From an uncultured Gemmatimonadales bacterium (GTDB lineage: Bacteria; Gemmatimonadota; Gemmatimonadetes; Gemmatimonadales; Gemmatimonadaceae): DNA of 64,000 bases. Positions within the stretch are counted from its first letter, which is position 1, and the number at the start of each line of letters is the position of its first letter. The DNA lies in NCBI GenBank assembly GCA_963707505.1, contig CAVPQB010000004.1:128001-192000 (forward strand). Reading direction: 5' to 3'. Shown piece after piece: positions 35,066-59,081 of the stretch. A program made the translations under genes and the position numbers. The notes under the pieces were generated by a model. That model saw only the letters and a program-made list of their open reading frames with translations, was not told the origin of the DNA and made no database searches.

Positions 35066-35311
35066 TCAGCTCGATCGCCTATCGGCATCGCTGATGTTCT
35101 CCAGCACTGCTTCCGCATTCCTTACCAACCGACTCCTCTTCGCCCGCTTCACCGCTGACTTCTTGAACGCCACTCTTAACTCCTCGTCGTCTATCGCGAG
35201 AACCTCCACCGCCAAGGTGCGCGCATCCGTCTCCCTTACCACTTCACGCGCCGCGAATGCGGGTTTTGTAGCGTCACGTGAGAACTTGATGTTCCAGGAA
35301 CATACAGATTG
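35066..35311 (-). pseudogene. queG: 3' remnant of epoxyqueuosine reductase (copy 1)
   Basis: QSVCSWNIKF..PAFAARE..DARTLA.EVLA...ELRVAFKKSAVKRAK..LVRNAEAVLEN resembles the QueG C-terminus (CQxVCPWN..SPxKRxK..GLxRNA). Confidence 0.78.
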
Positions 35312-35441
35312 GGACGTGTGCCGGTATACCCATTTTGAGATCTCGCTCTCGACCGGCGGGCGAACGCTTGCTGCGAAGATCCGCGTCGGAGCTCGAGTCG
35401 TGCACACGAGTCAAGCCGTCGACCCCGATTACCATCGGATG

Positions 35442-37562
35442 CTACTTCGAGTTCGCGCCGGGAGCGCAGGTCCGTGCTCCGATCAGCACTTGTGCGAACT
35501 GTGGCTTGTCGGCTGGTGGGAAGGGAACCTTCCCGGCCCCTGCGGGCTTGATGCAATCGTACGCGAGCATGTACGCCATGACGTTGGCGTACGAGGCGGG
35601 AGAGAGCGATCCTGGAGCGGTGAGTGGCATCCGTTGCACCACCGCCGCGCGGAATTGCGACGCATTGAGGTGCGCGCGCGCGATGCCGGCTCCGGTGAGC
35701 GCAGGCGCGGACACACCCTGAAGTTGCGCGCCATGGCACGACGCGCAGTTGGTCGTGTACACCGTCGCGCCACTCGCGACCTGCTGCGCGGTGTACGGGA
35801 GCGAGTCCGATGCGGCGAGACCGGACTCCGTCGCGCCGCCGCGTACTGATGCCGCGAGCGCGGGCTGTCCAGTTGTGTCGTTCACGGTCGCGTGTGTCGG
35901 ACCGAGTTGGTACACGATGACGCGACTGCCGTGCGGGGCCGGAAGATTGGGTGTCTGCTGGTTTCCCGCGCGGCCCACCATCAGCGCGAGCTGTTCCTTG
36001 CCGTCGAGCATGAACGCGGAGATTGGGGCGACGATCGCGGAGCCCGTGTTCGTTTTCCAGAGCTGCTTGCCCGTCGCGACGTCGAGCGCGTAGACATTTC
36101 CGCCGAGATCGCTGGTGAAGACCAGCCCCGTCGCGGTGACGAGCGCGCCGCCCTCAGCGGGGTATGGCAGCGTGATGCGCCACCGGACGTGCCCCGTCGC
36201 CACGTCTACCGCGGTCACCACGCCCGTGCCATTCTCTCGCTTCGGGAGCGGTCCGCCGGCGTAGTTCTGTCCCGGGATGTATTCCGGCGTCTCGGTCTGC
36301 AGCTTCCAGATCCCGCATTCCTGCGTGCTGGGAACCACGAACAGATTGGATGACGGATCGTACGCACCGCCGTTCCACTCGACGCCACCGCCATGATTCG
36401 GACACGCGCGTGTTCCTTTCAGCGTCGGCACGGTTGTGGCCAGCCCAGTCTGGTCGCTGACCGCGAGCTGGTGTACCACCGTGCCAGTGCTCTGATCGAG
36501 GATGAGGAAGTTCCCGGCCTTGTCACCAACCGCGACCAACGCGCGCGGCGCACCGGAGACCTTTCCGCTGAATAGCACCGGGATCATGGCCGGATCGGCG
36601 TCGTGCGTGTCGTTTGCGATGATCTGGTGATACCATTTCACCTTCGGTACCGAGCCACTGATGTCGAGGGCGACGATCGAGTTGGAGTAGAGATCCGCGC
36701 CCTCGCGTCCCTTGAGCACCATGTCGGGCCCGGGATTGCCGGGCGCGACGAAGAGCGTGTTCGTTACCGGATTGATTGCGACTCCCGACCACACCGCCGC
36801 CGCGCCGTGAACCCAGGAGCTGTCCTTCCACGTATCACGCTTGAGCGTTTCCCAGTTCCACAGCCTCTTCCCGTCGCTGGTGCTGAACGCGCTCACGAGT
36901 CCCCGATTCCCATTGTCGCCGCCGGCTGTGCCGACAATGACGGCGCCTCGGTAGACGTACGACGCCATGGAGTACCAGCTGTTGGTCGTGTCGCGACATC
37001 CGACGACGTTCCACACGGGCTTGCCCGTGGCCACGTCGAGCGCGATGACGTGACAGTCCTGCGTCGCGACGATCACACGCCCGCCATCGACGCCAACGCC
37101 CCGATTGGCGGCGAATGCGAACACGAACGGACTGTATGGAAACGCCCACTTCAGCTGTCCTGTGTGCGCATCCAGCGCAAGCACATTGTCGTGTGGCGTC
37201 GCCACGTACATCGTGCCGCCGGTGATGATCGGCGACGCTTCCTGTTCACCGTCGTCGCGAATTCGAGTCTCCCATCCTTCGCCGAGCGACGCGACATTCG
37301 CGGACGTGATCTGTGTCAGCGGTGTGTAGCGATTGCCCTCGTACGTCCGCGCGGGGAGAACCCATTCATTGGCGTTCTGACTGGCGCGAAGGAGTTGATC
37401 ATTCGTCGTACCTGCACGTTGCCGTGCCTCGTTGCATGACGGGAACGATACGGCTGCCAGTGCGGTGGGTGCGATGAGCGTGATTGCGCGCCGCGTCCAC
37501 CAGCGGTGGGGAGCAGGGCTCGTTAGAGGCGGTTGCGTGTGCTTCGACGATGTCGACACCAT
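35442..37562 (-). CDS. PQQ-dependent dehydrogenase with C-terminal cytochrome c (quinohemoprotein-like)
   Basis: NRYTPLTQIT, ANRG, GNPGPD, LYSNSIVALD, CPNHGGGVEWNG; heme motif CASCHG. Confidence 0.9.
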   Translation of the reverse strand: MVSTSSKHTQPPLTSPAPHRWWTRRAITLIAPTALAAVSFPSCNEARQRAGTTNDQLLRASQNANEWVLPARTYEGNRYTPLTQITSANVASLGEGWETRIRDDGEQEASPIITGGTMYVATPHDNVLALDAHTGQLKWAFPYSPFVFAFAANRGVGVDGGRVIVATQDCHVIALDVATGKPVWNVVGCRDTTNSWYSMASYVYRGAVIVGTAGGDNGNRGLVSAFSTSDGKRLWNWETLKRDTWKDSSWVHGAAAVWSGVAINPVTNTLFVAPGNPGPDMVLKGREGADLYSNSIVALDISGSVPKVKWYHQIIANDTHDADPAMIPVLFSGKVSGAPRALVAVGDKAGNFLILDQSTGTVVHQLAVSDQTGLATTVPTLKGTRACPNHGGGVEWNGGAYDPSSNLFVVPSTQECGIWKLQTETPEYIPGQNYAGGPLPKRENGTGVVTAVDVATGHVRWRITLPYPAEGGALVTATGLVFTSDLGGNVYALDVATGKQLWKTNTGSAIVAPISAFMLDGKEQLALMVGRAGNQQTPNLPAPHGSRVIVYQLGPTHATVNDTTGQPALAASVRGGATESGLAASDSLPYTAQQVASGATVYTTNCASCHGAQLQGVSAPALTGAGIARAHLNASQFRAAVVQRMPLTAPGSLSPASYANVMAYMLAYDCIKPAGAGKVPFPPADKPQFAQVLIGARTCAPGANSK

Positions 37563-37577
37563 AGGGAGTGTTCGAAC

Positions 37578-38252
37578 TCAGGTGGCCTGTGACCGGTCGT
37601 CCGCCGCTGTCCCCCCGCGCCGACGCGCCGTCGGGAGCTGCCAGTGGTTCCGCATCGCCATGACGCGCAACCCGATGCAGAGCGCGGCGCCAGCGATGCT
37701 GACGATCCCGGATGGGAGCTGGAGCCCGCGGCCGATCACGACGACGGCTGCGCCCGCGAGCGCCGCGACGGCGTAAAGATCCGCCCTCAGAATTACAGGA
37801 ACTTCCGACACGAGAATGTCGCGCGCCACTCCGCCGCCGACGCCGGTCACGACGCCGAGCAGCACCGCAGTGAGCGGCGCGAGATGAAAGGCAAGCGCCT
37901 TCGATGCACCGGTGACGGCGAACAGTCCGAGTCCCATGGCATCGAAGAGCAGTACCGAATTCCAGAGCCGGTCGACGAACGCCCCCCAGTAGAACGTGAC
38001 CAGGCCTGCGACGAGCGCCGCGGTGATGTAGCGCCAGTCCGCGATGCCTGGCGGCGGCACGGCGCCGATCAGGAGATCACGCGTGATTCCGCCCACGTTC
38101 GCCGCGGCGAACGACAGCACGAGCACGCCGAAGATGTCGAGCCGGTGCTTGACGCCGGACATTGCACCACTCAGCGCGAAGACAAACGTGCCGAGCAGAT
38201 CCAGCACCAGGGTGAGGGTGCTGATTGTGATCGGCGGAATGAGTGGCTGCAT
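37578..38252 (-). CDS. TRIC/UPF0126 (YadS-like) membrane protein
   Basis: GTFVFALSG, DIFG, GGITRDLLIG, DAMGLG, GVGGGVARD. Confidence 0.9.
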   Translation of the reverse strand: MQPLIPPITISTLTLVLDLLGTFVFALSGAMSGVKHRLDIFGVLVLSFAAANVGGITRDLLIGAVPPPGIADWRYITAALVAGLVTFYWGAFVDRLWNSVLLFDAMGLGLFAVTGASKALAFHLAPLTAVLLGVVTGVGGGVARDILVSEVPVILRADLYAVAALAGAAVVVIGRGLQLPSGIVSIAGAALCIGLRVMAMRNHWQLPTARRRGGTAADDRSQAT

Positions 38253-38256
38253 GCGT

Positions 38257-39525
38257 TCAGGAATGCAGCCAGGCCTGTGCCGCCGTCACCATGGTCTCCA
38301 CACCAGTGTGCAGCGTGGGATCCAGCACCGGGGCAAAGCGCGGGTTGTGATTGGTCGGGATCTCGTTGGTCTTGCCTGCCGCTTTGGCTTTCGCATAAAG
38401 CTCCGGGTCGGTTCCGCCAACGAACCAGAACACCGATGGAACGTGCCACTCGGTGCCGAAGGATCCGAAATCTTCGCTTGCGGTTGATGGCTTGGTTTCC
38501 ACGACCTCACTTGCGGGAAAGTACGCCCGAAGCGCATCGACGACACGTTTCGTCGCGGTCGCATCGTTCACGAGGAGGGGATAGCGGTCCAGCGGTGTGA
38601 TGTCAGGCGTTTTGGGTGCGCCGGATGCCTCCGCTTCTGCGTTCACGATCCGCTTGATGGCAGCGAGCACACGCGTGCGCACGTTCTCGTCGAAGGTGCG
38701 CACGTTCAATTTGATGGTCGCATTGTCGGGGATGACATTCTCTTTCGTACCGGCCTGCAGCGCGCCGACGGTGACCACGGCGGCATCTGTCGGAGCGACC
38801 TCACGCGACACGATCGTCTGAAGACGCATCACCAGAGCGGCCGCCATCACCACGGGATCGATGCTGGCCTGCGGCATGGACCCATGGCCGCCGCGACCGA
38901 ACAGCGTGATCTGCAGGCTGTCGCCAGCCGACGTCATGACGCCGCTGCGCCAGCCGATGGTACCGGCGGGAATGCTCATCACGTGTTGGCCGAGAATTAC
39001 ATCTGGTTTCGGGAATCGCGCGAGGAGTCCGTCATCGATCATCGCCCGCGATCCTTCGGCGGTCTCCTCCGCTGGCTGGAAGACCGCCATGAGCGTCCCC
39101 TTCCAACCCGTGCGAACCTGTGAGAACAACGTGGTCGTGCCGATCAGCCATGTCACGTGCATGTCGTGACCGCACATGTGACCAACGGGCGTCGTGTTCC
39201 CATCCCGGTCCTTCGCGACGACGGCACTTGCGTACGGAAGTCCGGTCGCTTCCTTGATTGGCAGCGCGTCCATGTCGGCGCGCAGCATCACGGTGGGGCC
39301 GTCGCCATTTCGCAGCAGTCCGACGACGCCGGTCTTACCGACGCCGGTCGTCACATCGAAGCCCACCTTGCGGAGCCTGTCCGCCGCGATGCCCGCTGTG
39401 CGAGTCTCCTGCATCGAGAGCTCGGGGTGCGAGTGAATGTCGGTGTAGATCGACTTCAGGTCGGGGAGCAGTGCCGCGAGCCCGGCAAGGACAGGCTCCG
39501 CCGGGCGTTGAACAGGTGTTGTCAT
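38257..39525 (-). CDS. M20D amidohydrolase (hippurate hydrolase-like)
   Basis: HPELSMQE, LRADMDALP, HMCGHD, FQPAEE, GGHGSMP, SEDF. Confidence 0.93.
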   Translation of the reverse strand: MTTPVQRPAEPVLAGLAALLPDLKSIYTDIHSHPELSMQETRTAGIAADRLRKVGFDVTTGVGKTGVVGLLRNGDGPTVMLRADMDALPIKEATGLPYASAVVAKDRDGNTTPVGHMCGHDMHVTWLIGTTTLFSQVRTGWKGTLMAVFQPAEETAEGSRAMIDDGLLARFPKPDVILGQHVMSIPAGTIGWRSGVMTSAGDSLQITLFGRGGHGSMPQASIDPVVMAAALVMRLQTIVSREVAPTDAAVVTVGALQAGTKENVIPDNATIKLNVRTFDENVRTRVLAAIKRIVNAEAEASGAPKTPDITPLDRYPLLVNDATATKRVVDALRAYFPASEVVETKPSTASEDFGSFGTEWHVPSVFWFVGGTDPELYAKAKAAGKTNEIPTNHNPRFAPVLDPTLHTGVETMVTAAQAWLHS

Positions 39526-39689
39526 GATCGATAACCTCGCGGGCGCCACGGCGCCCAGAGTGTCATGGTGAGAGCAACCGAAGGCGTGCACGATATGTGC
39601 CCGTAAAGGGCGCGCCGACGCTGTTCGATCCTTTGCGCCTTCCCCACGACTACGTAGAGCAGTCGCGCTCTTTCAAGGGCGATGCCCGG

Positions 39690-39790
39690 CGGGAACAGTG
39701 ATGGGTCACGTGCACCTCCACGTTGGTGACGTAGCGACAGCGTTGAGGTTCTTTGCCGAAGGCTTGGGTTTCGATCGCACTGTGGGCGGA
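39690..39790 (+). pseudogene. Fragment of a VOC/glyoxalase (CatE-like) gene
   Basis: GTVMGHVHLHVGDVATALRFFAEGLGFD only; no continuation. Confidence 0.6.
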
Positions 39791-40327
39791 TTCATGCGCC
39801 AATCGGATTCCACCAAGGGACAGATGGTTTGTCCCGGATTGACAACGCGCCACGTGCCGGAGCATGGCGCGCAAGCGAAAACGGTGAAGACATGACGACA
39901 ACGGTTGGCAGCACCGAGGAGCGAGCGGCTGATTGCGAGACCAGGATGCAGCTCAGGATTTTGGTTTTGCGTGCGGCGCTGCGAAAAGATTCGCTAAATG
40001 TGCGGTTGGCTCGCCTTGCCGCGCAGGTCGCGACCTCGCAAGGCGCGATCGCGCGGCTAGCGGCGATGGGAGAGTTCAACTGCCCACCATACGATCATTA
40101 CAACAGCGCTTCGAAGATACGACTCGCTGTTTCATGCATCTCGTGGAAGCGGCGAAACACCATCGTGGTCTCAAGAAGCAGTGGATCGAGTTTCTCGGCG
40201 AACAGCCCAATTCGGCCGTCGATCTGGTCGAGACGAGCGATGTCGAAGGCGAGCCTGCGGCGGCCTGAACTGAACTCCAGTGCAGCTCGTCGGCTAGGGA
40301 AGGTCTGAAGAACTTCGGAATGGATAC

Positions 40328-41361
40328 TCATGCTGTGATCTTCGCGCTGTCGCCCGCAGTGACTTCGTAAGTAGAGCCGGATACCATGGTCGCCGCATCG
40401 GAGGCAAGAAAGACAACTACAGGAGCGATGTCGTTCGGATCGATCCACGGCACGCCCAACGGGCTCGATTTTGCGAGTTCTTCACGCGCTGACTGTTCGT
40501 CCTTTGTGACATCACCGGTTGGCGTTTTGCCGCTCGTTTGCAAGGCTTGCGCATAGCGCTCCTCATGACGCGTGAGAGGCGTATCAACCAGTCCCGGAAC
40601 CAGGCAGTTCACGGTAATGCCACTTTTGCCCAGCTCGAGCGCGGCGGACTTCATCAGACCAATGAGTCCCCACTTCGACGCAGAGTACGCGCTGGCGTTG
40701 AAAGTCCCGTGCTGCCCCTGTGTGGACGTGGTGATGATCATGCGGCCCCTCTTGCGCCGCACCATTGCGGGCCCGAAGGCGCGCAAGACATTAGCTGTGC
40801 CGGTGAGGTTGGTGTCGATGGTGATGTGCCAGTCGGCGTCCTCCATCTCCATCAGGGGGTGGAACTGCTGAATTCCGGCGTTGGCGAACAGGATGTCGAC
40901 CGCGCCAAACGAGGACTCGATACGCTCCGCAGCCGCGCGCAGCGCCGGAAGGTTTCGCTGGTCGACAATATGCGACTGCCACTTGACCCCAAGCGTCTCG
41001 ACCAGTCTGCCGGTCTCCGCAAGGTCCTGCGGTGTCGAAGGCGTGACACCGGAGCGGGGATCGACGACTGCGCAGATGTCGAGCCCCGCTACGTTTGCCC
41101 CTGCGCCGGCGAGGGCAAGCGCGGCTGCACGGCCGATGCCACGCGCCGCACCGGTGACGACGGCGGTCTTGCCTTTCAGCGCGGTTGAAAGAAAGGTGTT
41201 GGTGGAGGGCTTATTGGCGGGACTGCCTGGCATCGGGTTCTCCGGGGACAACGACTGGAATGCGTGCGCCACAGTCGAGTTGCTGGATAGGAGCAGGGCC
41301 GCTGAGGCCTGCGTGACAAAAGCTCGACGAGTAAGCTCCGGTTCTTGGAGGGGTCTCGCAT
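40328..41361 (-). CDS. SDR oxidoreductase (carveol dehydrogenase-like) with apparent Tat signal; 1-bp indel near the start
   Basis: TGAARGIG, ANAGI, YSASKWG, PGLVDTP; in-frame upstream ELTRRAFV; ATG 41361 is one base out of frame (alternative start GTG 41272). Confidence 0.85.
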
Positions 41362-41385
41362 TTTGACCTACCGACGTCGGGTGAA

Positions 41386-41700
41386 CTACAAGATGGGAAC
41401 AGCCTTATCTGGAATGGTGTTGATCTCAGCTTCAGACACGTGGGCGTGGGCCACGGCGACCTGCATCGGCACCGCGCGCATTGGTGAGGAAGTCCATAGT
41501 CCGCGCATCTTCTGTACCGTTGAAGACGATCATGCGGACTTGTCGTGAGATCCAGAACTGCCGCTCGCTTGCGTTTGAGTGCCAGTGCAGCTCGCGAATC
41601 GCTTCCGGCTTCAACGTGACGATGCCGCCCGAAGTCTTTGGCGAAGCGGGGAAGTTCTTCACGTCGATGATCTTCACGTTGCATTTTCCGCTGGAACGTG
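41386..41700 (-). pseudogene. Oxalate decarboxylase (bicupin) C-terminal remnant
   Basis: KIIDVKNFPAS..IVTLKP.AIRELHWH.NASE.QF..RMIVF..ARTMDF, then a shifted tail EAEINTIPDKAVPIL*. Confidence 0.72.
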
Positions 41701-42066
41701 CGTCGCATCGTGCTTGTGTGGAATGTGTGTGGTGACCTGGTGGGTCCGCGGAGGATCACCACCGAGCGCTCGGCGCGGCGATATCTGCGTGACGGTACTC
41801 GACATTCCATGTGGCGCTCGCCGCGCTGGCGTGGTGCGGTCGAATACCGGACGCGGCCGTTCACACATTCCCGCATTCACATCTTTGGCTTATCCGCCGC
41901 GAGCGCTTCCGTATTTATCCCCAGCCAGACATCGGGCGCCGCGGATTGCGTGGGCACGACCTTGCTTACACCGCGAATCGTGAGCACCCCCCCAGCCGCG
42001 GCAGGCGCGGGAAATGCAGGCGGTCGTTTGACAGTGCATCCGTCACTTCATCAACGGAAGGAAACC

Positions 42067-42504
42067 GTGGCGAACGAAGAACGCAACATGCAGCTCATGC
42101 AGACCCTGGACGATGCTTGGAACGCGCAGGACATGGGTACCTTCGACAAGCGCCATCGTAAGGAAGTTGTGGTGCGCTGGCCGGGAAAAACGCCCACCAA
42201 CGGAATCGATGCGCACCACCAGGAGGCGATCGATTTCTTCAAGACATTTCCGGATCAGCACCTCGTCAATCGCCCGTATCGTGTCTTTTTCGCGAACGGC
42301 GACTGGACTTGTTCGATCGCTCACTTCACCGGCACCATGACGGGCCCAATGCAAGGGGCCGACGGCAAAGTGATTCCACCAACCGGCAAGGGATTCGACG
42401 TGGACTTCTGCACCGTGGCTCACTGGGACAAGGATGGTCAGATCATCGAAGAGAACCTCTTCTACGACCTCGTCACCTTCATGCATCAGATCGGACTCGG
42501 ATAA
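42067..42504 (+). CDS. Ester cyclase/SnoaL-like protein
   Basis: LDDAWN, FFKTFPD, GDWT..FTGTMTGP, PTGKGF.VDFCTV, IIEENLFYD; AAGGA RBS. Confidence 0.88.
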   Translation: MANEERNMQLMQTLDDAWNAQDMGTFDKRHRKEVVVRWPGKTPTNGIDAHHQEAIDFFKTFPDQHLVNRPYRVFFANGDWTCSIAHFTGTMTGPMQGADGKVIPPTGKGFDVDFCTVAHWDKDGQIIEENLFYDLVTFMHQIGLG

Positions 42505-42548
42505 GAATCCGATCGCGCAAGGGCGCGGTAACCGGGGGATTGCACAAC

Positions 42549-43008
42549 ATGACATCGCGTCCAGAATCCGTAGCTGTGGTACCACGCACAATGCCGCGGA
42601 TCGCCACCGTCGACGAGCGTTACGAATCTTACAACGTCGAGGTCGCGGAAGTCATCGCCGGCTAATGGGCACGACGTTGTTCACGCTGGTCCGTCTCGGG
42701 AGGGGCTGCATCTCCATGCACCGTGCGTGCGCGGGCACCCGGGCGGCGTAACACTGCTGGCGATTAACAACAGCCAAACGCAGGCCTCGTCGCTTCAGAT
42801 CCCAAGCGCTGCGGAGCGTTATACCTTGAGCGCGCAGCAGCTCGAGGCCACCGACATCGAACTCAATGGACATGAACTGACGTTGGGAGCTAACGATGCG
42901 TTGCCGGAGCTTCAAGGGACGAGTGTTCCGGCCGGAACCGTAACGCTCGCACCGGCTACCAGCACGTTCCTCACGATTGCGGATGCACGAGACGCGAGTT
43001 GCCGATGA
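42549..43008 (+). pseudogene. Internally deleted paralog of the GH79 gene at 44793
   Basis: PRTMPRIATVDERYESYNVEVAEVIAG fused to LMGTT..RGHPGGVTLLAINNS..ASCR*; about 1.1 kb of catalytic core missing. Confidence 0.88.
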
Positions 43009-43069
43009 CACTGCAGAGTGACGTCCCGGTTCCATGCAGGTTTCGATGCTCGACGTGAACATCGAGAAT

Positions 43070-44536: not shown

Positions 44537-44792
44537 ACGGGTCTCCATTGCGACGGCGCTGGCTTGACAGCTCCGTCGCCGAGAAAACAACCGGCGATGT
44601 GAGCTGCTTCCTGGCCTGACGGAGTATCTACAATCGCTGCGCGCCCAGCAAGTGTATGGATGGGACGACGACCGCTTTTGCGCCGGCAGCAGCAAGTGGG
44701 ATCACCTCTTGCAGTGACGTGCGCCAGGCGAGTACCGCGCACTGTGATTTTGCCTTTGAGTCCGGTCGCCGCCCATCTCTGGAAGGGAATTG

Positions 44793-46484: not shown

Positions 46485-46598
46485 CCTCAGCCGCTCCGCG
46501 CAGTCGAGCGTGCGTATCAAATCCGTGTTGCGGGCCTCGCGAGACGATTTTCCCGCCGGAGTTGCGCCTGCATCTGCTGCGCTCTTTTTGCTCTCGCG

Positions 46599-47198
46599 TT
46601 ACGATGAGATGTTCGTGCCCGCCGCATCGGTCGTGCGCGGCAATGCGGTGTAGACGCGCGTGATGTATCCCAGAAACTCGTTCATGTAGTTTGCGAGGAA
46701 CTCGGCAGTGGACTCGACCGTGACCTCTCCATCGTCAGTTATGAGGCCCGGCGTGAACGGGATGTACGCCTCGATGGCGTTCATCAGTGGCGAGTTGCAA
46801 AAGGCGAGGATGCTCCGGAGGTGCTGCTGGGCGACCGCCGTACCAATCTTGCCCGGTGACGTGCCGATGATCGCCGACGGCTTGCGCGCGAAGGAGTTGG
46901 TGCCCCAGGGGCGGCTCGCCCAGTCAATGGCGTTCTTGAGACCGCCGGGGATCGACCGATTGTACTCCGGCGTCACGAAGAGCACGGCGTCCACGGAGGC
47001 TATCGCGTCCTTCAATGCGCGACCGGCGGGCGGGTAGTCCTTGTCGTAGTCGTACGAGTAAAGTGGCAGCTCGCCGATCGGAATCTCCCTCAGTTGCAGC
47101 TCCGGCGGCGCGAGGCGCCTGAGGGCAAGGGCGAGCTTCCGGTTGATCGATTCCTTCGCGAGGCTGCCGACGAAATACCCAACCGTGAATGTGGTCAC
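46599..47198 (-). CDS. NADPH-dependent FMN reductase (ChrR-like)
   Basis: GSLAKESINR, TPEYNRSIPGGLKNAIDWASRP; GTG start with GAGG RBS. Confidence 0.92.
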   Translation of the reverse strand: MTTFTVGYFVGSLAKESINRKLALALRRLAPPELQLREIPIGELPLYSYDYDKDYPPAGRALKDAIASVDAVLFVTPEYNRSIPGGLKNAIDWASRPWGTNSFARKPSAIIGTSPGKIGTAVAQQHLRSILAFCNSPLMNAIEAYIPFTPGLITDDGEVTVESTAEFLANYMNEFLGYITRVYTALPRTTDAAGTNISS

Positions 47199-47436
47199 GT
47201 GCAGTCCTCGAATAGGGGGCGTCGTCGGTGGCGGACGACCCGCGTAACGTTGCAAGAATGACACCGCGTCCGTATCTGCTGTTCGTCACGATCGACCCCG
47301 CGTTCTGTTTCGCGACCGATCGGCACCGTCACGGCCGCGGGCCCATCTTTAGCATTAAGCGGAGCGTCGGCAAGCCGCCGAGTTTCCACCCGCAGGGTCA
47401 GGGTACACAGTCGTCTCCAATGGCCGGAGGGCCATT

Positions 47437-48153
47437 ATGACCGCCGATCACCTCACACCGCCGCAGAGCGACTCCCAGTTCGCACGTCACCATCCCACTG
47501 AATACTTGACCGCGTACGCGATTGCAGGTGCCATTGGCGTCATCGTTCTGATCGTGCTTTTCCTCTTCATCGGGCACGAGATCCCGACGCATGACGCGCT
47601 CACGCGCGGCGATGCAGCCGTCAACGCGTGGATGGAGTCGCACAACACGGAGCCGGGCGAGACGATCTTCACGTGGGTGAGCTACATCGGCGCACCCGTG
47701 CTCGCGGCGACGGTCGCGATCAGTCTCATCGTGTTCGCGCGGCGGCATGACTGGTTCCACGTGTGGGCCGTGGCACTCGTGACCGGCGGCGGCCTTCTGC
47801 TGAGCACGATCCTCAAGTTCGTCTTCCATCGTGCGCGGCCGCTTACCGCCGCTGAGTTCATGACGCACCCGACTTACAGCTTTCCAAGTGGGCATGCGAT
47901 GAACTCCATGATCACGTACGGCTTCCTGCTACTGCTGCTGCTCGACCACGTGCACGAGCGCGGCAAGCGCGTCGCACTCGTTCTTGGCGGCCTCGTGATC
48001 ATCGGGGCGATTGGCTTCAGCCGCGTGTATTTGGGTGTGCATTTCGTTACCGACGTGATCGGCGGCTGGATTGCGGGCGCGGCGTGGCTGACGGTGGGGA
48101 TCGGCGGTTATCGTTTCGCGCAGCGCCGCTTCGCGCGGCGGCAGCTGATGTGA
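47437..48153 (+). CDS. PAP2 family membrane phosphatase
   Basis: K..FHRARP, SFPSGH, SRVYLGVHF.TDV. Confidence 0.92.
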   Translation: MTADHLTPPQSDSQFARHHPTEYLTAYAIAGAIGVIVLIVLFLFIGHEIPTHDALTRGDAAVNAWMESHNTEPGETIFTWVSYIGAPVLAATVAISLIVFARRHDWFHVWAVALVTGGGLLLSTILKFVFHRARPLTAAEFMTHPTYSFPSGHAMNSMITYGFLLLLLLDHVHERGKRVALVLGGLVIIGAIGFSRVYLGVHFVTDVIGGWIAGAAWLTVGIGGYRFAQRRFARRQLM

Positions 48154-48186
48154 CAGGGACGGCGCTTGCCGGAGTTGCGCCGCTTG

Positions 48187-48275
48187 CATTCACGAGCACG
48201 GCTGACGCAATTGCGCTGCAGTCCTGCGAGCTTCGCGCGCTTCACCGGTGACTTCTTGAACACCGTGCGAAATTG
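48187..48275 (-). pseudogene. queG: Short 3' remnant of queG (copy 2)
   Basis: QFRTVFKKSPVKRAKLAGLQRN, then shifted ASAVLVN; homologous to copies 1 and 3. Confidence 0.7.
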
Positions 48276-48351
48276 TCCACTGTGCGGCAAACTCTAATGG
48301 TCCCAGCTACTTAGAGTTCGTTGTCGCGTCCCCGCGCGACCGTTTAAACAT

Positions 48352-48367
48352 CAGCCCCTGCGTTCAA
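48352..48367 (+). promoter_or_regulatory. CAGCC-N5-GTTCAA motif upstream of the GNAT operon
   Basis: CAGCCCCTGCGTTCAA; same motif at 51784, 52280 and 52301. Confidence 0.55.
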
Positions 48368-48442
48368 GCAAGGGGCACCGGGCATTCGGTAATGTGCAGC
48401 TGCGATAACACATGTCGCGTCACGCACACCCAGGATACCGCC

Positions 48443-49099
48443 ATGCCGTTCGCCCTCCGACACCGTAGCGACCCGACTCCGCGTCTTGAGTCGCTACCGA
48501 CATTTTCCGTCCGCCGCGAGGAGGACGCGTCCGTCATGGCCGCGCTGCAGCAACGCGATGAAGCTGACATGGTGCGCCGCTTGGATACCGGACACCGCGC
48601 CTATGTCGCGATGTGCGATGGTCAACGCGCCGCGTGGGGATGGGTTGCGACCCGCTTCGCCGAAATTGGCGAGGTCGGTGCCTCGTTCACTCTCCCTGCC
48701 GGCGAACAATACCTGTGGAACTTCGTTACGCTCGCCGACTATCGCGGGCGAGGTATCTACCCACGGCTGCTCGATGCGATCGTGCGTGCGGAGTCGCGCG
48801 AAGCCGCGCGATTCTGGATCGCATATGCGCCGGAGAACCACGCGTCGGGAGCGGGCATCCGGAAGGCGGGCTTCGTCGATCTCGCCGAGTTGTCGTTCGA
48901 TGCAAGCGGCCGGCCCGCGCTCACACCGCTATTGCCTGGTGGTGCCCGGGTCGCGTCGCGAGTGCTCGGACTGCCCGAGAAGCGGGAGTCGCTCGCGCCG
49001 TGCTGGCGCTGCGTGCGCGCGGGTCGCGGGAGTATGTCCTGCGCACCTGGGCAGTGCCGATGCGACTATCAGCGGCCTGCATCGGGATGTGCATCGTGA
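48443..49099 (+). CDS. GNAT N-acetyltransferase with Cys-rich C-terminal tail
   Basis: YRGRGIY, ENHAS..GIRKAGF; tail CWRC..C...CRC...C. Confidence 0.8.
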   Translation: MPFALRHRSDPTPRLESLPTFSVRREEDASVMAALQQRDEADMVRRLDTGHRAYVAMCDGQRAAWGWVATRFAEIGEVGASFTLPAGEQYLWNFVTLADYRGRGIYPRLLDAIVRAESREAARFWIAYAPENHASGAGIRKAGFVDLAELSFDASGRPALTPLLPGGARVASRVLGLPEKRESLAPCWRCVRAGRGSMSCAPGQCRCDYQRPASGCAS

Positions 49100-49166
49100 C
49101 ATACATCGGGACATACATCGGAGCATGCCGCGTGAGCGCCCACGTACCGCGCATTGGAAGCCACAC

Positions 49167-49718
49167 ATGGACACGCACGCCGACACGTACATGGAGTCAC
49201 ACATGCAGATGATGAGCGAAGTTTCGACGGCAACCGCGTACGCAACCGCGGTGACGACAATACTGCTCGGCACAGCGGCTGGCGGGACCTTTACCGTTCT
49301 GGCGTACAGTGTTCCCAAGTACGCGAAGCCGTTCCTCTCGGCCGCCCTTTTCGTCACGGCGATGCTCTACGTCGGTCTGGCGCTCGCCGGTGGCGCTGGT
49401 CCCGCGTGGCTCACGGTGGAGATCGTCGGCGTTCTCGTGTACGGCAGTGCATCGCTCCGCGGACTGCGCGGGTCGGCGTGGTGGATCGTCGCCGGCTGGG
49501 CGCTCCATCCCATCTGGGACATCGCACATCACGTCGCACACACTGGTCACGCCTTCGTTCCCTCGTGGTACGCGATGGCATGTCTGGGCTTTGACATAGC
49601 CGTTGCAGCCGTGATCGCGTCACGAACGTGGCATGGCGCCACCGCACTGTCGCAGTCTCTTCCGCGATGGGTCCCGCAGTCACTTCTACAGTCTCTTCCA
49701 CAATGGGTTCGGCTATGA
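49167..49718 (+). CDS. Membrane protein (DUF6010-like)
   Basis: LYVG, GWALHPIWDIAHH, VPSWYAMACLGFD; start uncertain; stop overlaps next ATG. Confidence 0.65.
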   Translation: MDTHADTYMESHMQMMSEVSTATAYATAVTTILLGTAAGGTFTVLAYSVPKYAKPFLSAALFVTAMLYVGLALAGGAGPAWLTVEIVGVLVYGSASLRGLRGSAWWIVAGWALHPIWDIAHHVAHTGHAFVPSWYAMACLGFDIAVAAVIASRTWHGATALSQSLPRWVPQSLLQSLPQWVRL

Positions 49719-50830
49719 CCGCGATGCGTCCGACGGTGCTATCCACAGACGCGCGTGCAATGCGTGTCGAGCGGTACGACACCGTTGTCATCGGCGGAAG
49801 CCAGGCCGGCCTCGCCGTCGGGTATCATCTCGCGCGCCGTGATGTCGACTTCGTGATTCTCGATGCCGAGCGACGCGTGGGCGACGCATGGCGCAAACGA
49901 TGGGACTCGCTCCGCCTATTCACGCCGGCCGCGTACAGCGGGCTCCCTGGCATGGCGTTCCCAGCGCCGCCATCGCATTTGCCCGACAAGGATGAGGTGG
50001 CCGACTACCTCGAGCGCTACGCCGAGCGGTTCGATCTGCCGATCCGGTGCGCGATGCGCGTTGATTCGCTCGCCTCCGATGGCGAGTGGTATACCGTCCA
50101 CGCCGGCGACGTACGAATCGAGGCCGCAAATGTTATCGTCGCGACCGGTCCGCTTCGGTCGCCGCGTATTCCCTCGATCGGCGCCTCGCTCGCGCCCGAT
50201 ATTCTTCAGATCCACTCGAGCGAATACCGCAATCCGTTCGAACTTCCTGACGGGCCCGTGCTGGTCGTGGGAGCCGGGAACTCGGGCGCGCAGGTCGCCC
50301 TCGAGCTTGCGAGGTTCCGGAAGGTGTGGCTCGCTGGCTCGTCCACCGGCTACATCCCGCGCAGAATTCTCGGCCGCGATGTGTTCTCGTGGATCTGGCC
50401 CTTGATGTCGCGCGCGACGGCCGATACGCGGATTGGAAGACGATTGCGCCAACGCGCCACACGCGGCGGCGACGCGCTAATCGGAATTCCGGAGCGTACG
50501 CTCGTCGATGCGGGCATCGTCCGCCTAGGTCGCGTCACGGAACAGCGCGGTGGTCTCCCGCTCTGCAATGGCACCGTCGTGCAACCGAGCGTCATCGTCT
50601 GGTGCACAGGATTCGCGTCGGACTACAGATGGATCGCGCTCCCCGTCACCGACGAGCGCGGGCTTCCGCTCCACCATCGCGGCGCCGCGACCGGGCTGCC
50701 GGGTCTCTATTTCGTCGGCCTTCGCTTCCAGCATCGCATGACGTCCTCCCTGCTCGGCGGCGTCGGCGAGGACGCGGCATACATCGCGGACATCGTGGCC
50801 CGCCGTGCGGAAGGGGTGCGGTTCGCCTGA
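49715..50830 (+). CDS. Flavin-containing monooxygenase (CzcO/ArsO-like)
   Basis: VIGGSQAGL, WDSLRLFTP, HSSEY, VVGAGNSG, WCTGF, LYFVG. Confidence 0.9.
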   Translation: MTAMRPTVLSTDARAMRVERYDTVVIGGSQAGLAVGYHLARRDVDFVILDAERRVGDAWRKRWDSLRLFTPAAYSGLPGMAFPAPPSHLPDKDEVADYLERYAERFDLPIRCAMRVDSLASDGEWYTVHAGDVRIEAANVIVATGPLRSPRIPSIGASLAPDILQIHSSEYRNPFELPDGPVLVVGAGNSGAQVALELARFRKVWLAGSSTGYIPRRILGRDVFSWIWPLMSRATADTRIGRRLRQRATRGGDALIGIPERTLVDAGIVRLGRVTEQRGGLPLCNGTVVQPSVIVWCTGFASDYRWIALPVTDERGLPLHHRGAATGLPGLYFVGLRFQHRMTSSLLGGVGEDAAYIADIVARRAEGVRFA

Positions 50831-50900
50831 GGTAGCTCCGCGTTTTGCGAGAATCGCCTTCTGGCGGTAAACTCCGGGTGACTGCCACCATCGGGTGACC

Positions 50901-51704
50901 ATGAGTAGCAAGGATAGCAAGAGCACCACCAGCGTGACCGGCGGCATCGGGCATTTCGTGTCGTGGGATGGCGGCTGCGTCTTGATCGGACGCAACGTCG
51001 GCGTCATCCCGCCGCACGCACACTACGCGATTCAGATCGCGTTCGGCACGGAGCACGGCGTGCGCTTTCGCTCGCAGGAGAGTGATGCGTGGACCGAGTA
51101 CGGCGGTGCGATCATTCCCTCGCGCCACCCGCACTCCATGGACGCGACGCACGTGCGCGCGAACGCCGTGTTGTTCGTCGAGCCGGAGACGCGCGAGGGA
51201 CGCGCGTTGCGAGAGCGCTACCTGCAGGGCGGCATCGCTGCGCTACCGGACGACCTGCTCGCCGATACCCGTCGGGCATTGTTCTCCGCGTGGGAAGAGC
51301 AGCGGAGCAGGCACGCTGTCGCTGACGTGGCGCAGCATGTGATTCGTACACTCGCGGGAGGCGTCGGTCCGACCGTCACATCGGACAAACGCATTCTGCG
51401 CGCGATTACTTACATCAAAGCCCATATCAACGGTCCGATCACGCTCGACGAAGTAGCGCGCGAGGCGTGCCTGTCGCCGAGCCGCTTCCGTCATCTCTTT
51501 GTCGAAGAGACGGGGACGGCATTCCGCCCGTACGTCCTCTGGCGCCGCTTTCTGCGTGTGTGGGAGTTGTTGACGGCTGGAAGCTCGCTGTCGACCGCAG
51601 CGCATGCGGCGGGCTTCGCCGACGCCGCGCATCTCGCGCGGACGTCGCGGACCATGTTCGGTTTTCCGCCGTCGGCCATTCAGCTCGCAGCGCCACTCGA
51701 TTAG
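50901..51704 (+). CDS. AraC family transcriptional regulator
   Basis: HAHYAIQ sensor region, LSPSRFRHLF, GFADAAHL.RT...MFG. Confidence 0.92.
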   Translation: MSSKDSKSTTSVTGGIGHFVSWDGGCVLIGRNVGVIPPHAHYAIQIAFGTEHGVRFRSQESDAWTEYGGAIIPSRHPHSMDATHVRANAVLFVEPETREGRALRERYLQGGIAALPDDLLADTRRALFSAWEEQRSRHAVADVAQHVIRTLAGGVGPTVTSDKRILRAITYIKAHINGPITLDEVAREACLSPSRFRHLFVEETGTAFRPYVLWRRFLRVWELLTAGSSLSTAAHAAGFADAAHLARTSRTMFGFPPSAIQLAAPLD

Positions 51705-51781
51705 CCTCGCACCGTCGAGAGAGGCTTGAGAACGGACGGATGGAACATCTTGTTGTGCACACCGCGGCATCCGCGCGTCGA

Positions 51782-51799
51782 TTCAGCCCTTTCGTTCAA
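51782..51799 (+). promoter_or_regulatory. 18-bp motif upstream of the metallothionein-like gene
   Basis: TTCAGCCCTTTCGTTCAA, identical to 52278-52295. Confidence 0.65.
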
Positions 51800-51923
51800 T
51801 CCCGTGAGGCACATGAGGAGATAACGTGAAGCTTACGACGACCGCTGTCCGCAACTCCGCGGGCCGGTACCCGGTTCAACGGGACGTCGCGACGCAAACA
51901 CTGAATTCTCCGAGGAATCTCTC

Positions 51924-52127
51924 ATGACTCGCTCTGCCACCACCCGCTGCTCCTGCTCGCCATGTTCCGCAGGTGCCTGCACTTGTACCTCCTGCCACAC
52001 GACGGCCGAACGCGCCGACGCGGCAAGCACCGATGTTGCACGCACCGGTGTTGCACGCTGCTGCTGCGGCAGTGCGTGCGGCTGCGATGTTTGCGTGTGC
52101 CCGCCGAACTGCGGCTGCGCGAAGTAA
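51924..52127 (+). CDS. Metallothionein-like Cys-rich peptide
   Basis: 67 aa with 15 Cys in two clusters (CxCxxC-x4-CxCxxC; CCC-x3-CxCxxCxC-x3-CxC); GAGG RBS; upstream motif. Confidence 0.75.
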   Translation: MTRSATTRCSCSPCSAGACTCTSCHTTAERADAASTDVARTGVARCCCGSACGCDVCVCPPNCGCAK

Positions 52128-52277
52128 GGAAGTAACATCGCGTCAGCATTGCGTCGGGAAGTCTGTACCACACGGGGCGCGGTTCTTGAGAACCGCGCCC
52201 CGTTGTGCATTCACTACGCGTCAAGGAACGCACCGTAGGTGGAATGATAGCCGGCGCCAATCGAGCATTCGCCGCGC

Positions 52278-52316
52278 TTCAGCCCTTTCGTTCAACAGCA
52301 CAGCCGCTCCGTTCAA
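52278..52316 (+). promoter_or_regulatory. Direct-repeat pair (21-bp period), candidate AraC site
   Basis: CAGCCCTTTCGTTCAA at 52280 and CAGCCGCTCCGTTCAA at 52301. Confidence 0.65.
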
Positions 52317-52404
52317 TTCCGAGCCTCCGAGGCGGGATAATCTTGAATCACGACCGCGCCGCGTGGCGCTTGTCGATTCGACCATCCCTAATCGAGATCC
52401 TCCA

Positions 52405-52868
52405 ATGCGCTTCTCCGTCGCAAAGTTTCGCCGCCGTACGCTCTTCACGCGAGCGTTCGCCTCGATTGTCGCAGCCAGTGCCGTTGCTGTGCTCGCGGCT
52501 GCATGCTCTTCGCCCGCGCCCCGCAGGATCTGGATTACTCGCGCACGCGCACCAGCGAGGGCGGCCACTACGTCGCTACGATTCACCCGCAGGGCGATTC
52601 GATCCCGCAGGGCCGGCTGCATCGCTGGACGCTCCACCTCGAGACTGCGGCGGGCGTACCGGTGGACAGCGCGGTGCTCACCGTCGATGGCGGGATGCCG
52701 CAGCACGGCCACGGCCTGCCGACGAAGCCCCGCGTCACGCGTGCGCTCGGCAACGGCGACCACCTCGTCGAAGGAATGAAGTTCAACATGGGCGGCTGGT
52801 GGGTCGTGAAGTTCCGCGTCGCCGCGGCTCAGGGCACCGACTCCGTCGTATTCAACCTCAAGCTCTGA
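52405..52868 (+). CDS. YtkA/FixH-like lipoprotein, frameshifted near 52497
   Basis: Signal peptide from ATG 52405; one added G gives lipobox VLAGC joined to [35 protein letters not shown]. Confidence 0.72.
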
Positions 52869-54145
52869 TGGACGCACGTCGCATCGCTCGCAAGCTGAGC
52901 ACGCGTTCGAGGACGGTTGTTTGGCCGGTCGCCATCGGCGCTGCGTTCGGGCTGACGTCGACGGCGGCGCTGAGCGGTATCGTTGCCGTTCGCCCGCAGT
53001 GGACGCCGACAGAGCGCGCGACACTGCGCTCGCTCGCTCTCTCGAGCCTCGGCCCGCTGCCGCCGGATCCGTCGAACGCGGCGGGTGACGACCCCCGCGC
53101 CGCGGCGCTCGGACGCGCGCTCTTCTTCGACACACGGCTGAGCGGCAACGGCAAGGTGTCGTGCGCGACGTGCCATGTACCGACGCAGGACTTCCAGGAC
53201 GGCAAGCCACTCGCTCACGGCGTCGGCACCACGGCGCGCCGCACGATGCCGATCGCCGGCACCGCACACAGTGCGTGGTTCTTCTGGGACGGCCGCGCCG
53301 ACAGCCAGTGGGCGCAGGCGCTCGGCCCGCTGGAGAGTGCGGTCGAGCACGGCGGCACGCGTGCGCAGTACGCGCACGTGATCGCGAAGCATTACCGCGC
53401 CGAGTACGAAGCCGTGTTCGGCCGGCTGCCATCACTCGACGACGTTCCGGCACAGGCCGGACCGGTTGCCGACGAGTCGGCGCGCGTGGCTGGCGTGGCA
53501 TCGCGCCGGCGCGGCAGCAGGACGTCAGCCGCGTGTACGCCAACATCGGCAAGGCCATCGCCGCGTACGAGCGGCGCATCACGTTCGCGCCGTCGCGGTT
53601 CGACCGTTACGTCGACGCCGAGCTCGCCGGTCGACCGAACACGCCTGCATCGGCTCTCACTGATGACGAAGCGGCCGGACTGCGGCTCTTCATCGGCAAG
53701 GCGAACTGCGTCAACTGTCACAACGGGCCCCGTTCACCGATGACCACTTTCACAACACCGGCGTACCCGTCTCACGGGTCGTTCTCGCCACCGACAGCGG
53801 CCGCGCGACGGGCGTTCGGCAGGCGCTCGCCGGCGAGTTCAGCTGCACGAGCCGGTACAGCGACGCGAAGCCCGAGGACTGCGACGAGCTGCGCTTCGCG
53901 GTCACCGAGGGCACTGAGCTCGTGCGCGCATACAAGACGCCGTCGCTGCGCAACGTCGCGGAGCGCGCACCGTACATGCACGCCGGCCAGCTCGCGACGC
54001 TCACGACGTGGTATCGCACTACGACCGCGCCGCCCCCGCACCGTTCGGCCACAGCGAGTTGAAGCCGCTGCATCTCTCGTCGAAGGAACGACGTCAGATC
54101 GAAGCGTTCCTGCGCACACTATCGGCGCCTGTGGTGCGCCCCTGA
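52868..54145 (+). CDS. Di-heme cytochrome c peroxidase superfamily enzyme (MauG/MbnH-like), three frameshifts
   Basis: [55 protein letters not shown]; shifts near 53490, 53732 and 54005. Confidence 0.85.
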
Positions 54146-54279
54146 GCACGCACGCGAGTGATGTGATAGCGACGTGCACCGCGAGTACGAACGGCATGCG
54201 CGCGAACGATTCCCGTACCACTTCGCCACGGTCGCGTTGCCATGGAGAAGATTTAGCGGCTGGTGTCTTCCTCGTCAGC

Positions 54280-54495
54280 TCAGCCAAGCACCACGGCTGC
54301 GTTCCGTTTGAGTCAGGCAAGCTTCGCGCGCTCCACCGGTGACTTCCGGAACGCCGTGCTGAACTCCTCCTGCGACATCGCAAGCACCTCGCTCGCCAAC
54401 GTCCGCGCATCCTTCCCAGCGATCACCTCACGCTGAGCAAGAGCCGCCTCGGTCGCATCTCCCGAAGACTTCACGTTCCACGGACACACACTTTG
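54280..54495 (-). pseudogene. queG: 3' remnant of queG (copy 3)
   Basis: QSVCPWNVK..EAALAQREVIAGKDARTLASEVLAMSQEEFSTAFRKSPVERAKLA*LKRNAAVVLG*; internal TGA at the position of Gly in copy 2. Confidence 0.82.
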
Positions 54496-55120
54496 GGGCG
54501 TGTATCCACTCACCCATTTCGAGATCCCGCTTTCGACGGGTGGCCGAACTATACGAACCATCAAAGGTGAGCCTCGCGGGCCAGTGTATGGCAGCTCGTC
54601 GAGTGCGAGAGCTCAGCGATGATCGAGGAGGAGCCGGTGAGGCGCAAACGATGGCTCTGAACTCAACGCCGTGGGCGATTCGGCAGAAGTGTACTACGCA
54701 CACCGCGTGGGAACCATCACGGTGCGTGTCCGTCGCTAATAATTCGGCGTGCTTGGCCGGGAGGGCATCTCGCGACCCAACGTTGGATACATGGAGGTCC
54801 ACCCCTACACTTGCAGTTGCAGTATAGAAAGAGCGATATCAAGCAGGCGTTCACGATACCATGCGCGCTGAATATTCCTGAATATGCGCGCGCGCCATCC
54901 TGGAAGGGACAGAATGGCCGTATAGTGGTCGCGCGCCGCTGATTGCGCCCCATGCTTTTTGAAAGGGATCGCATCTTGCTCTATGCGACAGTGGCGTTGC
55001 GGCCGCTCTCTTCTTCACTGTCATTGCGTGAGCTAGCTCTCCCGTTTCTCAGTGCAGGCAGGAAGTCTTGGATCCAGCGCGCGATCTGATAGACGAACTC
55101 TTACTGTGGGAGCACTAGGA

Positions 55121-55981
55121 ATGTCGAGCACTGAACCGAAGCACTTCGCTCTTGGAAGAGATCATTGCGGCCGGGCACTCAGCATCATCAAGTCGAGGCG
55201 TACCGTGCGACTGGCAGCGTCGTTCGCTGCTCTCGCAGCGGCATTCCTCGGCACCTCGCAGCTCACGGCTCAGGGAACCCTTGGCACGGCCCAGGCGTTC
55301 GGCGTCCTCGGGGCGTCGACGGTTACGAACACGGGCCCAACAACGATCACTGGCGACCTCGGAGTCTCGCCGGGAACCGCGATAACGGGACAGGGAAGCA
55401 TCACGCTCAACGGTGCGCTGCATGATGCTGATGCTGTTGCGCTGCAGGCGCAGCACGACGCGCGCACCGCGTACAACAACCTTGCTGCTCAAACGCCTAC
55501 TCAAGACCTGACGGGTCATGACCTTGGCGGAATGACGCTGACGCCTGGCGTGTATTTCTTCTCGTCGTCGGCACAGCTGACCGGAAATCTATTTCTCAAT
55601 TTTCTGGGCAATCCGAACTCGACGTTCGTGTTCCAGATCGGGAGCGCACTCACAACCGCCAGCGGATCCTCAGTGTCGGAGACGACGGGTGCGCCGGGCG
55701 CAAACGTGTTCTGGCAGGTCGGGAGTTCCGCGACCCTGGGGACAGGCACACAATTTCAGGGGACTATCATAGCAGACCAGAGTGTCACACTGACCACCGG
55801 CGCTTCCATCTCATGCGGCAGAGCGATCGCGTTGACCGGTGCGGTGACAATGGACAACAACGTCATCTCGAATGAATGCGGTGGCGCAACCAGCACCGTC
55901 CCCGAGCCGAGCTCGATGGCGTTACTCGGAACCGGGATGCTGGGACTGTTCCCAATGCTTCGCCGCCGCAGGAACGGCTAG
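55121..55981 (+). CDS. DUF3494 ice-binding-like protein with PEP-CTERM sorting signal
   Basis: [54 protein letters not shown]-terminal VPEP-TM-RRRR. Confidence 0.9.
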
Positions 55982-56349
55982 TATCCAGAAAGAGTCTCGG
56001 ACTCACGCGCCGGGCGGACAGTTGCCCGCAACCAATCCTCGCAATCGTGCGATGCTTGGTTGCGCCACCGTGCCGAGCCCGGTGATCGATGTTCCGGGCG
56101 AGATACCCAGGTCGCCAATTGATCATCGCTGCGAGCTTCATTTCGCATCGTTCCACCGGCGATAACCACTGCGCGTACAACCGCGAGTTACCAGGAGTCT
56201 GCTTTTCTTGTTGCAATCTGCACGGGGCAGAGTCCACATCATGACGGGGATCACACTCACGCATCCGTTGAAGAATACAGCGTGAAGATCACCGCGAGCC
56301 GGGGCGCATCGGCACTTTCTCGCGTTCACTTGCACAACGGCTCCAACAC

Positions 56350-59050: not shown

Positions 59051-59081
59051 CCCGCCGCGGGAAAGCGGTCAGGGTGTAACT

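Follow-up and report, generated by a model that had tools for sequence, protein, structure and literature searches.

Phage 21 and the element e14 replace the 3' end of icd and leave the displaced fragment at their far end; each is a single prophage with a tyrosine integrase, whose int gene is not known to overlap the replaced tail. In the staphylococcal cassette chromosome (SCC), short att sites lie at the very end of rlmH and ccr is not known to overlap the target, while the integrase of Myxococcus phage Mx8 is of the tyrosine type and uses a tRNA gene. The Dehalococcoides ssrA islands, as described in excerpts of PMC3146451, stand in tandem downstream of a single-copy gene, are bounded by its displaced 3' fragments and use a serine integrase, DsiB. 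According to the same excerpts, dsiB lies on the reverse strand beside attL and always overlaps the att site, which leaves the position of its stop uncertain. Many islands have no integration module and were proposed to be cis-mobilisable, and the authors raised the question whether only the circle carries a whole integrase. Here we describe a comparable arrangement at queG, the gene for an enzyme of queuosine modification, in a 64,000-nucleotide stretch of DNA from an uncultured Gemmatimonadales bacterium (GCA_963707505.1, contig CAVPQB010000004.1, positions 128,001 to 192,000; the window) and in its relatives, a group placed in Gemmatimonadota by protein names and record titles. The window carries three displaced queG 3' ends, which were probably left, as attR-type scars, when a large serine recombinase (LSR) repeatedly integrated elements at one CA dinucleotide; the units so formed would accrete and be cis-mobilised.

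Displaced queG tails and their junction

An earlier note, made from the letters of the window alone, had pointed to three diverged QueG C-terminal fragments on the minus strand, and profile and tblastn searches identified all three as QueG. Copy 1 (35066..35311) has 81 open codons and a stop, matches TIGR00276 (E 2e-6) and would be the B'-type half of an attR-like site. Copy 3 (54280..54495) matches the same family (E 9e-7) and contains an internal TGA at 54313. Copy 2 (48187..48275) is a truncated tail of QueG codons ~285-312 with neither arm nor junction, recovered by tblastn (E 1.7e-4; 87% identity to queG over 45 bp). Over 210 nt, the tails of queG and copy 3 are 79% identical, and copy 1 is 64% identical to each of them. 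The window holds no intact queG, as the note had observed: the gene lies 6.7 kb beyond the right edge (G000:C4:198737-199708, minus strand), with all remnants downstream of it on the same strand. No comparable queG copy was found elsewhere in the 3.66-Mb assembly by tblastn and blastn, and a weak fourth trace of a queG tail lies outside the window at C4:195548-195606 (E 0.034).

Copies 1 and 3 both begin at the Gln codon of the Fe-S motif, at queG nucleotide 730 (Cys-x-x-Cys|Gln), exactly where the note had placed their break. Directly upstream of both tails stands a common 76-bp arm of non-queG sequence, the putative element end or P half-site (arm 1, 35312..35387; arm 3, 54496..54571; both on the plus strand). 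Arm 1 reads as the last 25 codons of a recombinase and arm 3 likewise as recombinase C-terminal codons, and the canonical stop is lost from both. The likely crossover dinucleotide, CA, comprises the first two bases of the Gln codon (35310..35311, minus strand, in copy 1) and is surrounded by inverted symmetry. When the genome was searched by nhmmer with an arm profile, the two window arms, which belong to its training set, gave E 4e-17 and 1e-11, and the next match E 1.2. The missing stops, the stop inside the copy 3 tail and the armless copy 2 suggest that the window represents an older, decaying part of a queG stack.

In Bacillus subtilis QueG the motif runs Cys240-x2-Cys243-x3-Cys247 (excerpts of PMC5175355), and by this numbering the break separates the last two Fe-S ligands from one another. 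Since the tail holds one cluster ligand together with the tRNA-binding helical domain, a displaced tail would have to be replaced for QueG to function. Intact queG genes are mosaic at the junction, with identities in the 5' part and the tail of 0.92 and 0.72 in one pair of genomes (G013-G005) and 0.94 and 0.83 in another (G015-G016), and their tails show a synonymous bias of 0.68. Past the junction, QueG has 138-141 residues where an LSR stands beside it and 80 in this genome; a length of 74-88 was found in 16 of 23 recombinase-less, arm-bearing genomes examined. The QueG of this genome has no HEAT_2 match, arm-less or LSR-bearing relatives have 105-157 residues past the junction, and short forms are the rule in this genus.

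Of 21 same-genus genomes, 13 yielded extra QueG 3' pieces. With the arm profile, matches were obtained in 33 of the 301 genomes searched from the order, 30 of them among the 137 of the family, and the most matches in any one genome numbered 24. A sample of 301 genomes spanning the class gave 10 with a match, which belong to five families; G007, G017 and G044 were counted only in the same-genus QueG-piece and arm-search tallies. The loci fetched yielded 136 arms in 46 related Gemmatimonadota genomes. The break is CC|CA in 119 of these arms, and the queG post-junction 29-mer comes next in 115. Among the matches listed in a scan of genome contigs were at least five close loci, all from Gemmatimonadaceae or Gemmatimonadales, which were not counted as independent. 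The arm pattern matched one viral contig, from an unrelated phage, and this was treated as chance.

The arm is coding on the opposite strand. In the 56 distinct sequences among 57 ungapped arms ending in CA, a stop codon stands at -76..-74 in 35, with all three stop codons in use; other arm codons have 0-2 stops at any position, and only 2 internal stops occur in 1344 codons. The synonymous share is the highest of six frames (0.50 vs 0.15-0.42). Because these arms were pre-filtered on CA, a core count from them would be circular, and the unfiltered counts over 136 arms are used instead. Watson-Crick or hairpin covariation was not seen in the 56 arms, and 42 arm peptides matched no Pfam family.

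Three loci depart from the common pattern. At L012:1833-1953 (G018) a queG 5' piece (codons 16-48) joins directly onto the final ~22 bases of an arm, at a short stretch where both sequences resemble each other. An arm at L052:6171 (G377:C1, ~330 kb), 4.6 Mb away from the queG array, has no recognisable queG tail and may mark a secondary site. At L032 (G349:C31) arms point in both directions and their flanks are nearly identical, which may be due to an inversion or to a fold-back in the assembly.

A large serine recombinase overlapping queG

An arm-peptide profile was searched against 1.84 billion representatives. The best 150 of 166 matches were mostly spurious antisense open reading frames (ORFs) and beta-propeller repeats, and three carried an N-terminal stretch that we take to resemble the end of an LSR; a homolog search with this 75-residue stretch returned no matches. 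Among 14 recombinase loci fetched from relatives, six have an LSR gene of 716-822 codons directly behind intact queG and convergent with it, and the other eight are not at queG. All six products match PF07508 and four match PF00239 (E<=1e-5); R26-K27-S28, C335, C338 and C379 are invariant in 59 alignment rows. A catalytic resolvase domain with its Ser, a recombinase domain, a zinc ribbon and a coiled coil are present, in relatives only. The stretch of this genome from queG to copy 1 gave no match to a recombinase family, and the note had seen no integrase in the window; the window appears to hold non-autonomous remains, with no recombinase gene inside an element. No conserved neighbour gene was seen upstream of the six LSRs.

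The six queG-side genes overlap the queG tail in antisense over ~140 codons and end at or just past the junction. Because the last ~140 LSR codons overlap the tail, the island supplies a new QueG C-terminus. Of 72 LSR homologs, 63 reach the junction motif: 28 stop exactly there, 20 add six residues, and the others run further into queG antisense or, in P0161, P0175 and P0216, into an arm-like peptide. The arm holds the last 25 codons and the stop of the LSR. Within one 90% cluster, P0261 and P0216 agree up to the junction and then differ, one continuing as queG antisense and the other as arm peptide, and LSR cluster 8 has several host-dependent endings. An AlphaFold2 model of P0216, built with an alignment, matches the folds of the SPbeta, phiC31 and Bxb1 integrases, SPbeta being the nearest solved structure. 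Its body is confident, and the queG overlap and arm peptide have a predicted local distance difference test score (pLDDT) <50, so that the model predicts neither a fold nor a docking position for the peptide; a model of the natural LSR fragment plus arm without alignment was uninformative (pLDDT 35).

Three complete islands span 27.3, 34.7 and 23.4 kb between the junction and the first arm. Among their genes are those for type I restriction, methylases, Gabija and a Rep, and none was recognised as a conjugation gene. Partial LSRs behind a tail, which look like decay intermediates, occur at L038, L066, L030, L087, L089, L091, L092 and L099. A second, distant LSR (31% identity) without queG overlap lies at L075:6138-8039 (G076) and would belong to a sister clade at another site.

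The arm and the LSR-borne tail together form an imperfect inverted repeat that extends 22 bp to either side of CA, as in the ~45-50 bp att sites of LSRs, which are imperfect inverted repeats about a 2-bp core. When the remnants' own tails take the place of the LSR-borne tail, the outer part of the symmetry disappears. LSR-borne tails carry Tyr/Phe (58 of 63 LSR homologs) where host-type tails carry Trp, 83 of the 136 remnants having His in the antisense frame, that is, Trp in the tail; the change from Trp to Tyr/Phe completes the mirror symmetry of the site. In LSR sites the distance of the outer motif from the centre is 5 bp shorter in attB than in attP (excerpts of PMC11722253). Here the outer half-site motif of P aligns with P' best at shift 0 (0.69) and with B best at shift 5 (0.53), and the left half follows the rule (shift 5 best: 0.53 and 0.60). 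By these features, the remnants would be attR-like (P-B'), queG beside an LSR attL-like, and queG beside a recombinase-less unit attB-like.

Cassette stacks and their possible origin

Junction-to-junction units lying inside one fetched locus number 96, the three complete islands being left out, with a median length of 3.1 kb and 84 of them <=6 kb. In 95 there is no LSR body and the unit ends in an arm; like a cis-mobilisable element (CIME), such units have an att site at both ends and no integrase or transfer genes. Their left site is attB- or attR-like, not attL-like. A cargo scan of 115 of the 158 unit ORFs found MazEF, PIN, YhaV, AbiE, Fic, kinases, PadR/GntR-transporter pairs and small enzymes, and two arrays of this genus also contain Shango genes. 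Transposase genes also lie inside array units: IS110-like ones, assigned by a motif, at L038:12860-13999, L035:16854-17366 and L067:13928-14821, and an IS91-like one, assigned by Pfam, at L049:3751-5289.

The blocks between remnants, whose variation the note had proposed to test, differ between relatives, and they are shared as whole units. Unit 1 of G012 and unit 2 of G020, both recombinase-less and at different positions, are 98.3% identical over 3454 bp, the queG genes of the two being 73% identical. Identity drops at the junction (80/80 before, 44/80 after), and does so likewise in G231/G349 and G302/G148. The second tail and kinase of G018 match the first unit of this genome at 94.8% over 1826 bp (queG 82%), and small units stand behind LSR islands in G076, G167 and G098. 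The tails, 118 of which were in frame and used, group by genus and not by genome: the nearest match lies in another genome for 68 of 96 and in the same genome for 28.

We propose a model built on what the sequences themselves display: the fixed break, the coding arm, the LSR overlap, the two natural endings of one enzyme, the att symmetry and the shared units. A defence island of 23-35 kb would integrate (attP x attB) through this LSR, restoring queG, moving the old queG tail to the island's far end and cutting off the LSR C-terminus. Islands would then decay or excise, leaving recombinase-less units of tail, cargo and arm. Behind such a unit queG would again be attB-like, and new islands could stack in front at this regenerated site. 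A new island could excise through any downstream arm, carry small units in a composite circle to another cell and later leave them there; such carriage would explain why units bear host-type tails. Repeated site-specific integration at queG, which the note had put forward, thus draws support from the LSR beside queG in relatives and from the one-dinucleotide break.

Several observations weigh against this model. A recombinase domain (PF07508) is present in only 17 of 55 genomes with arms, where it mostly lies at some other place in the genome, and this genome has no PF07508, PF00239 or LSR-body match (its assembly is 83% complete). Copy 2 is armless, both window arms are without a stop, and 21 of the 136 arms have no clear queG 29-mer after them. 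LSR body sequence survives in only 1 of 96 units, so that decay in place has seldom been caught in progress; small indels lie near the junction at the left end of the G012/G020 match, and the B' half-site has no clear 5-bp-shifted motif. Neither a circle nor an excision was observed, and public-run contigs on the window and queG contain no joint at CA, which is neutral either way. No LSR with a short Trp-type tail like that of this genus was found, so the composite-carriage step, itself conjectural, would be needed to explain the units. The loci were picked for arm or tail matches, which biases the counts, and related genomes are not independent. Finally, tails of 210-400 bp are good substrates for homologous recombination, which could equally be what moves the units.

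This last point underlies an unlikely alternative, in which the sites have the same LSR origin and the units are dead, having decayed in place and spreading only by RecA-type recombination between tails during transformation or transduction. Tails of this length that are 65-95% alike and group by genus would suit it, as would the absence of the LSR from most arm-bearing arrays, the partial LSRs behind tails and a deletion over copies 2-3 in one metagenome contig (depth 2.7) that does not end at the junction. Yet the identity of shared units falls at CA, not within the tail, and most units have a tail with the host's Trp, where decay in place predicts the LSR-borne Tyr/Phe type; the arms also keep frame and stop, though these may be inherited. 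A lineage-specific repeat, the note's second suggestion, or a local tandem duplication of the queG 3' end with no recombinase involved is very improbable: some same-genome tails are sisters, as the 28 with a nearest match in their own genome indicate, but the breakpoint is fixed, the arm is foreign and coding, and an LSR overlaps queG in relatives. Most tails are closest to one from another genome, and no bootstrap tree (0%) unites the three tails of this genome as a clade (approximately unbiased test p 0.043, borderline). The switching of LSR endings at the junction largely refutes such a duplication.

We give equally little credence to an integron-like array driven by a tyrosine recombinase, the arm being an attC-like hairpin or the catalytic-Tyr end of a split integrase. 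A TAAC...GTT pair at the arm start recalls attC, an RYTH-like word occurs in the antisense peptide, the cargo is integron-like, and IntI-sized PF00589 matches exist in these genomes. Among the PF00589 matches listed, however, none is near an array (37 genomes), the 56 arms lack Watson-Crick covariation, and the arm reading frame joins an LSR, not a tyrosine recombinase; with no intI beside an array and no covarying attC hairpin, this reading was dropped. Many family genomes do have a tyrosine recombinase with a ~600-bp PF00589 match, often near contig ends and unlinked to queG arrays (G377:C1:4064027-4064632, G016:C9:9719-10318); this length exceeds that of XerC/D and is an IntI-like feature. 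An assembly artefact is scarcely credible. Frameshifts affect several genes near the array, as they do in long-read assemblies, but the copies are 64-79% alike, the same anatomy in 46 genomes refutes an artefact, and the copy 3 junction lies within an identical 151-bp metagenome contig of a public run that may be the source sample.

The LSR model can be extended to a bolder reading, which we hold only tentatively and consider doubtful. Passing islands would capture genes in integron-like fashion across the phylum, with queG as a self-regenerating landing site and the small units as live cassettes that any LSR island can pick up. The 25-residue arm peptide, gained by the LSR only on the circle or in tandem, would switch LSR activity or stability and so keep the cassette arms coding. 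Each event would also exchange, and in some genera shorten, the part of QueG that binds tRNA, so that the movement of these elements would be linked to queuosine modification.

Between copy 2 and arm 1, the window cargo (35388..48186) comprises PAP2, FMN reductase, GH79, MFS, SnoaL, SDR, M20 peptidase, glycine transporter and PQQ dehydrogenase genes; in the 40 kb of G016 examined, the flanking genes and PAP2 are present, and copy 1 and the rest of the 35.4-46.6 kb block were not found. Between copies 2 and 3 (48276..54279) lie GNAT, DUF6010, flavin monooxygenase-like, AraC and YtkA genes and a frameshifted di-haem peroxidase gene. One soil-metagenome contig (depth 2.7) joins window 48166 to 54890, as in a relative without copies 2 and 3 and the intervening block. 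The remainder (54572..64000) would be the distal part of the first unit or units behind intact queG, runs 6.7 kb past the window to that gene, and includes two ice-binding genes, an OmpA gene and Ser/Thr kinase-PD40 genes. The two DUF3494 ice-binding genes, one with PEP-CTERM, and the OmpA gene occupy 55052-59050, and related blocks (80-81%) lie within the queG arrays of G012 and G005. The peroxidase gene (52205-54342) and two kinase-PD40 genes (59164-62009 and 63159 onward) are split over frames where the G016/G020 orthologues are whole, which reflects decay or long-read error.

For Gemmatimonadaceae the queG stack is a main hotspot of accessory genes, with toxin-antitoxin, restriction, Gabija, Shango and ice-binding genes, and in many related soil bacteria the broken tails mark stacks of small, likely swappable gene cassettes. 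The stack has also left many genomes with a QueG short of part of the tRNA-binding helical domain. The queG LSR clade, with its predicted and precisely mapped attP/attB, is unreported in the literature searched and may be of use as a genetic tool in a phylum that has few of them.

Comparison with known systems

The queG stack resembles phage 21 and e14 in the replacement of a gene's 3' end and differs from them in its LSR, its stacking and its antisense overlap. The parallel with phage 21 at icd drawn in the earlier note therefore stands for the displaced 3' ends of the target and fails for the enzyme, which is an LSR and not a lambda-type tyrosine integrase.

The closest likenesses are to SCC arrays and to the Dehalococcoides ssrA islands, which in excerpts of PMC3146451 share the tandem stack, the displaced 3' fragments, an integrase gene lying over the att site and many recombinase-less units. 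Those islands, by the same excerpts, have a tmRNA target, a 20-bp repeat, an overlap of ~70 bp and a six-gene module with a second recombinase, DsiA. The queG stack instead has a protein-coding target cut within an Fe-S motif, a coding-tail repeat of 230-420 bp, a ~140-codon overlap of two proteins, no conserved partner gene seen and a conserved arm-coded ending; no DsiB/DsiA six-gene module was seen at queG. As both endings of one LSR are on record, the Dehalococcoides question, whether the integrase is active only with its circle ending, becomes testable.

SCC and SCCmec at rlmH (CcrAB/CcrC) are similar in their serine recombinases, protein-coding anchor and tandem, defence-rich cassettes that are excised by a neighbour's recombinase (excerpts of PMC11470126). 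According to that source, SCC cassettes measure 24-68 kb and lie downstream of rlmH, whereas queG units are mostly 1-6 kb, each with a third of the host enzyme, and the queG islands encode a single LSR of 700-820 residues in place of CcrAB/CcrC. The accretion and cis-mobilisation of CIMEs by integrative and conjugative or mobilisable elements, as presented in excerpts of PMC5704250, likewise involve att-flanked, integrase-less decay, tandem accretion and composite transfer; unlike them, the queG stack has no conjugation genes recognised in the three complete islands and as many as 24 arms per genome. Phage Mx8 carries attP within its integrase gene, and integration gives the enzyme a new C-terminus and changed activity (excerpts of PMC6070905), but Mx8 is not known to have an antisense overlap with a host enzyme or a cassette stack. 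The LSRs of Durrant et al. form site-specific clades aimed at one conserved coding site; their targets are described as disrupted (excerpts of PMC10083194), whereas queG would be restored by an element-borne tail. The terms queG, queuosine and Gemmat- were not found in the text or supplementary files of PMC10083194 examined, and the literature searched, judged by titles and abstract openings, holds no report of queG as an integration target.

Judged by these likenesses, the queG stack is a system that would work as the ssrA islands, SCC, CIMEs and Mx8 do, and by target or module it is a member of none of them. Its architecture has precedent, and the coding target within an Fe-S motif, the unusually long opposite-strand overlap of two proteins that is cut and rejoined by recombination, the swapping of a host domain and the family-wide stacks appear to be undescribed features of such systems.

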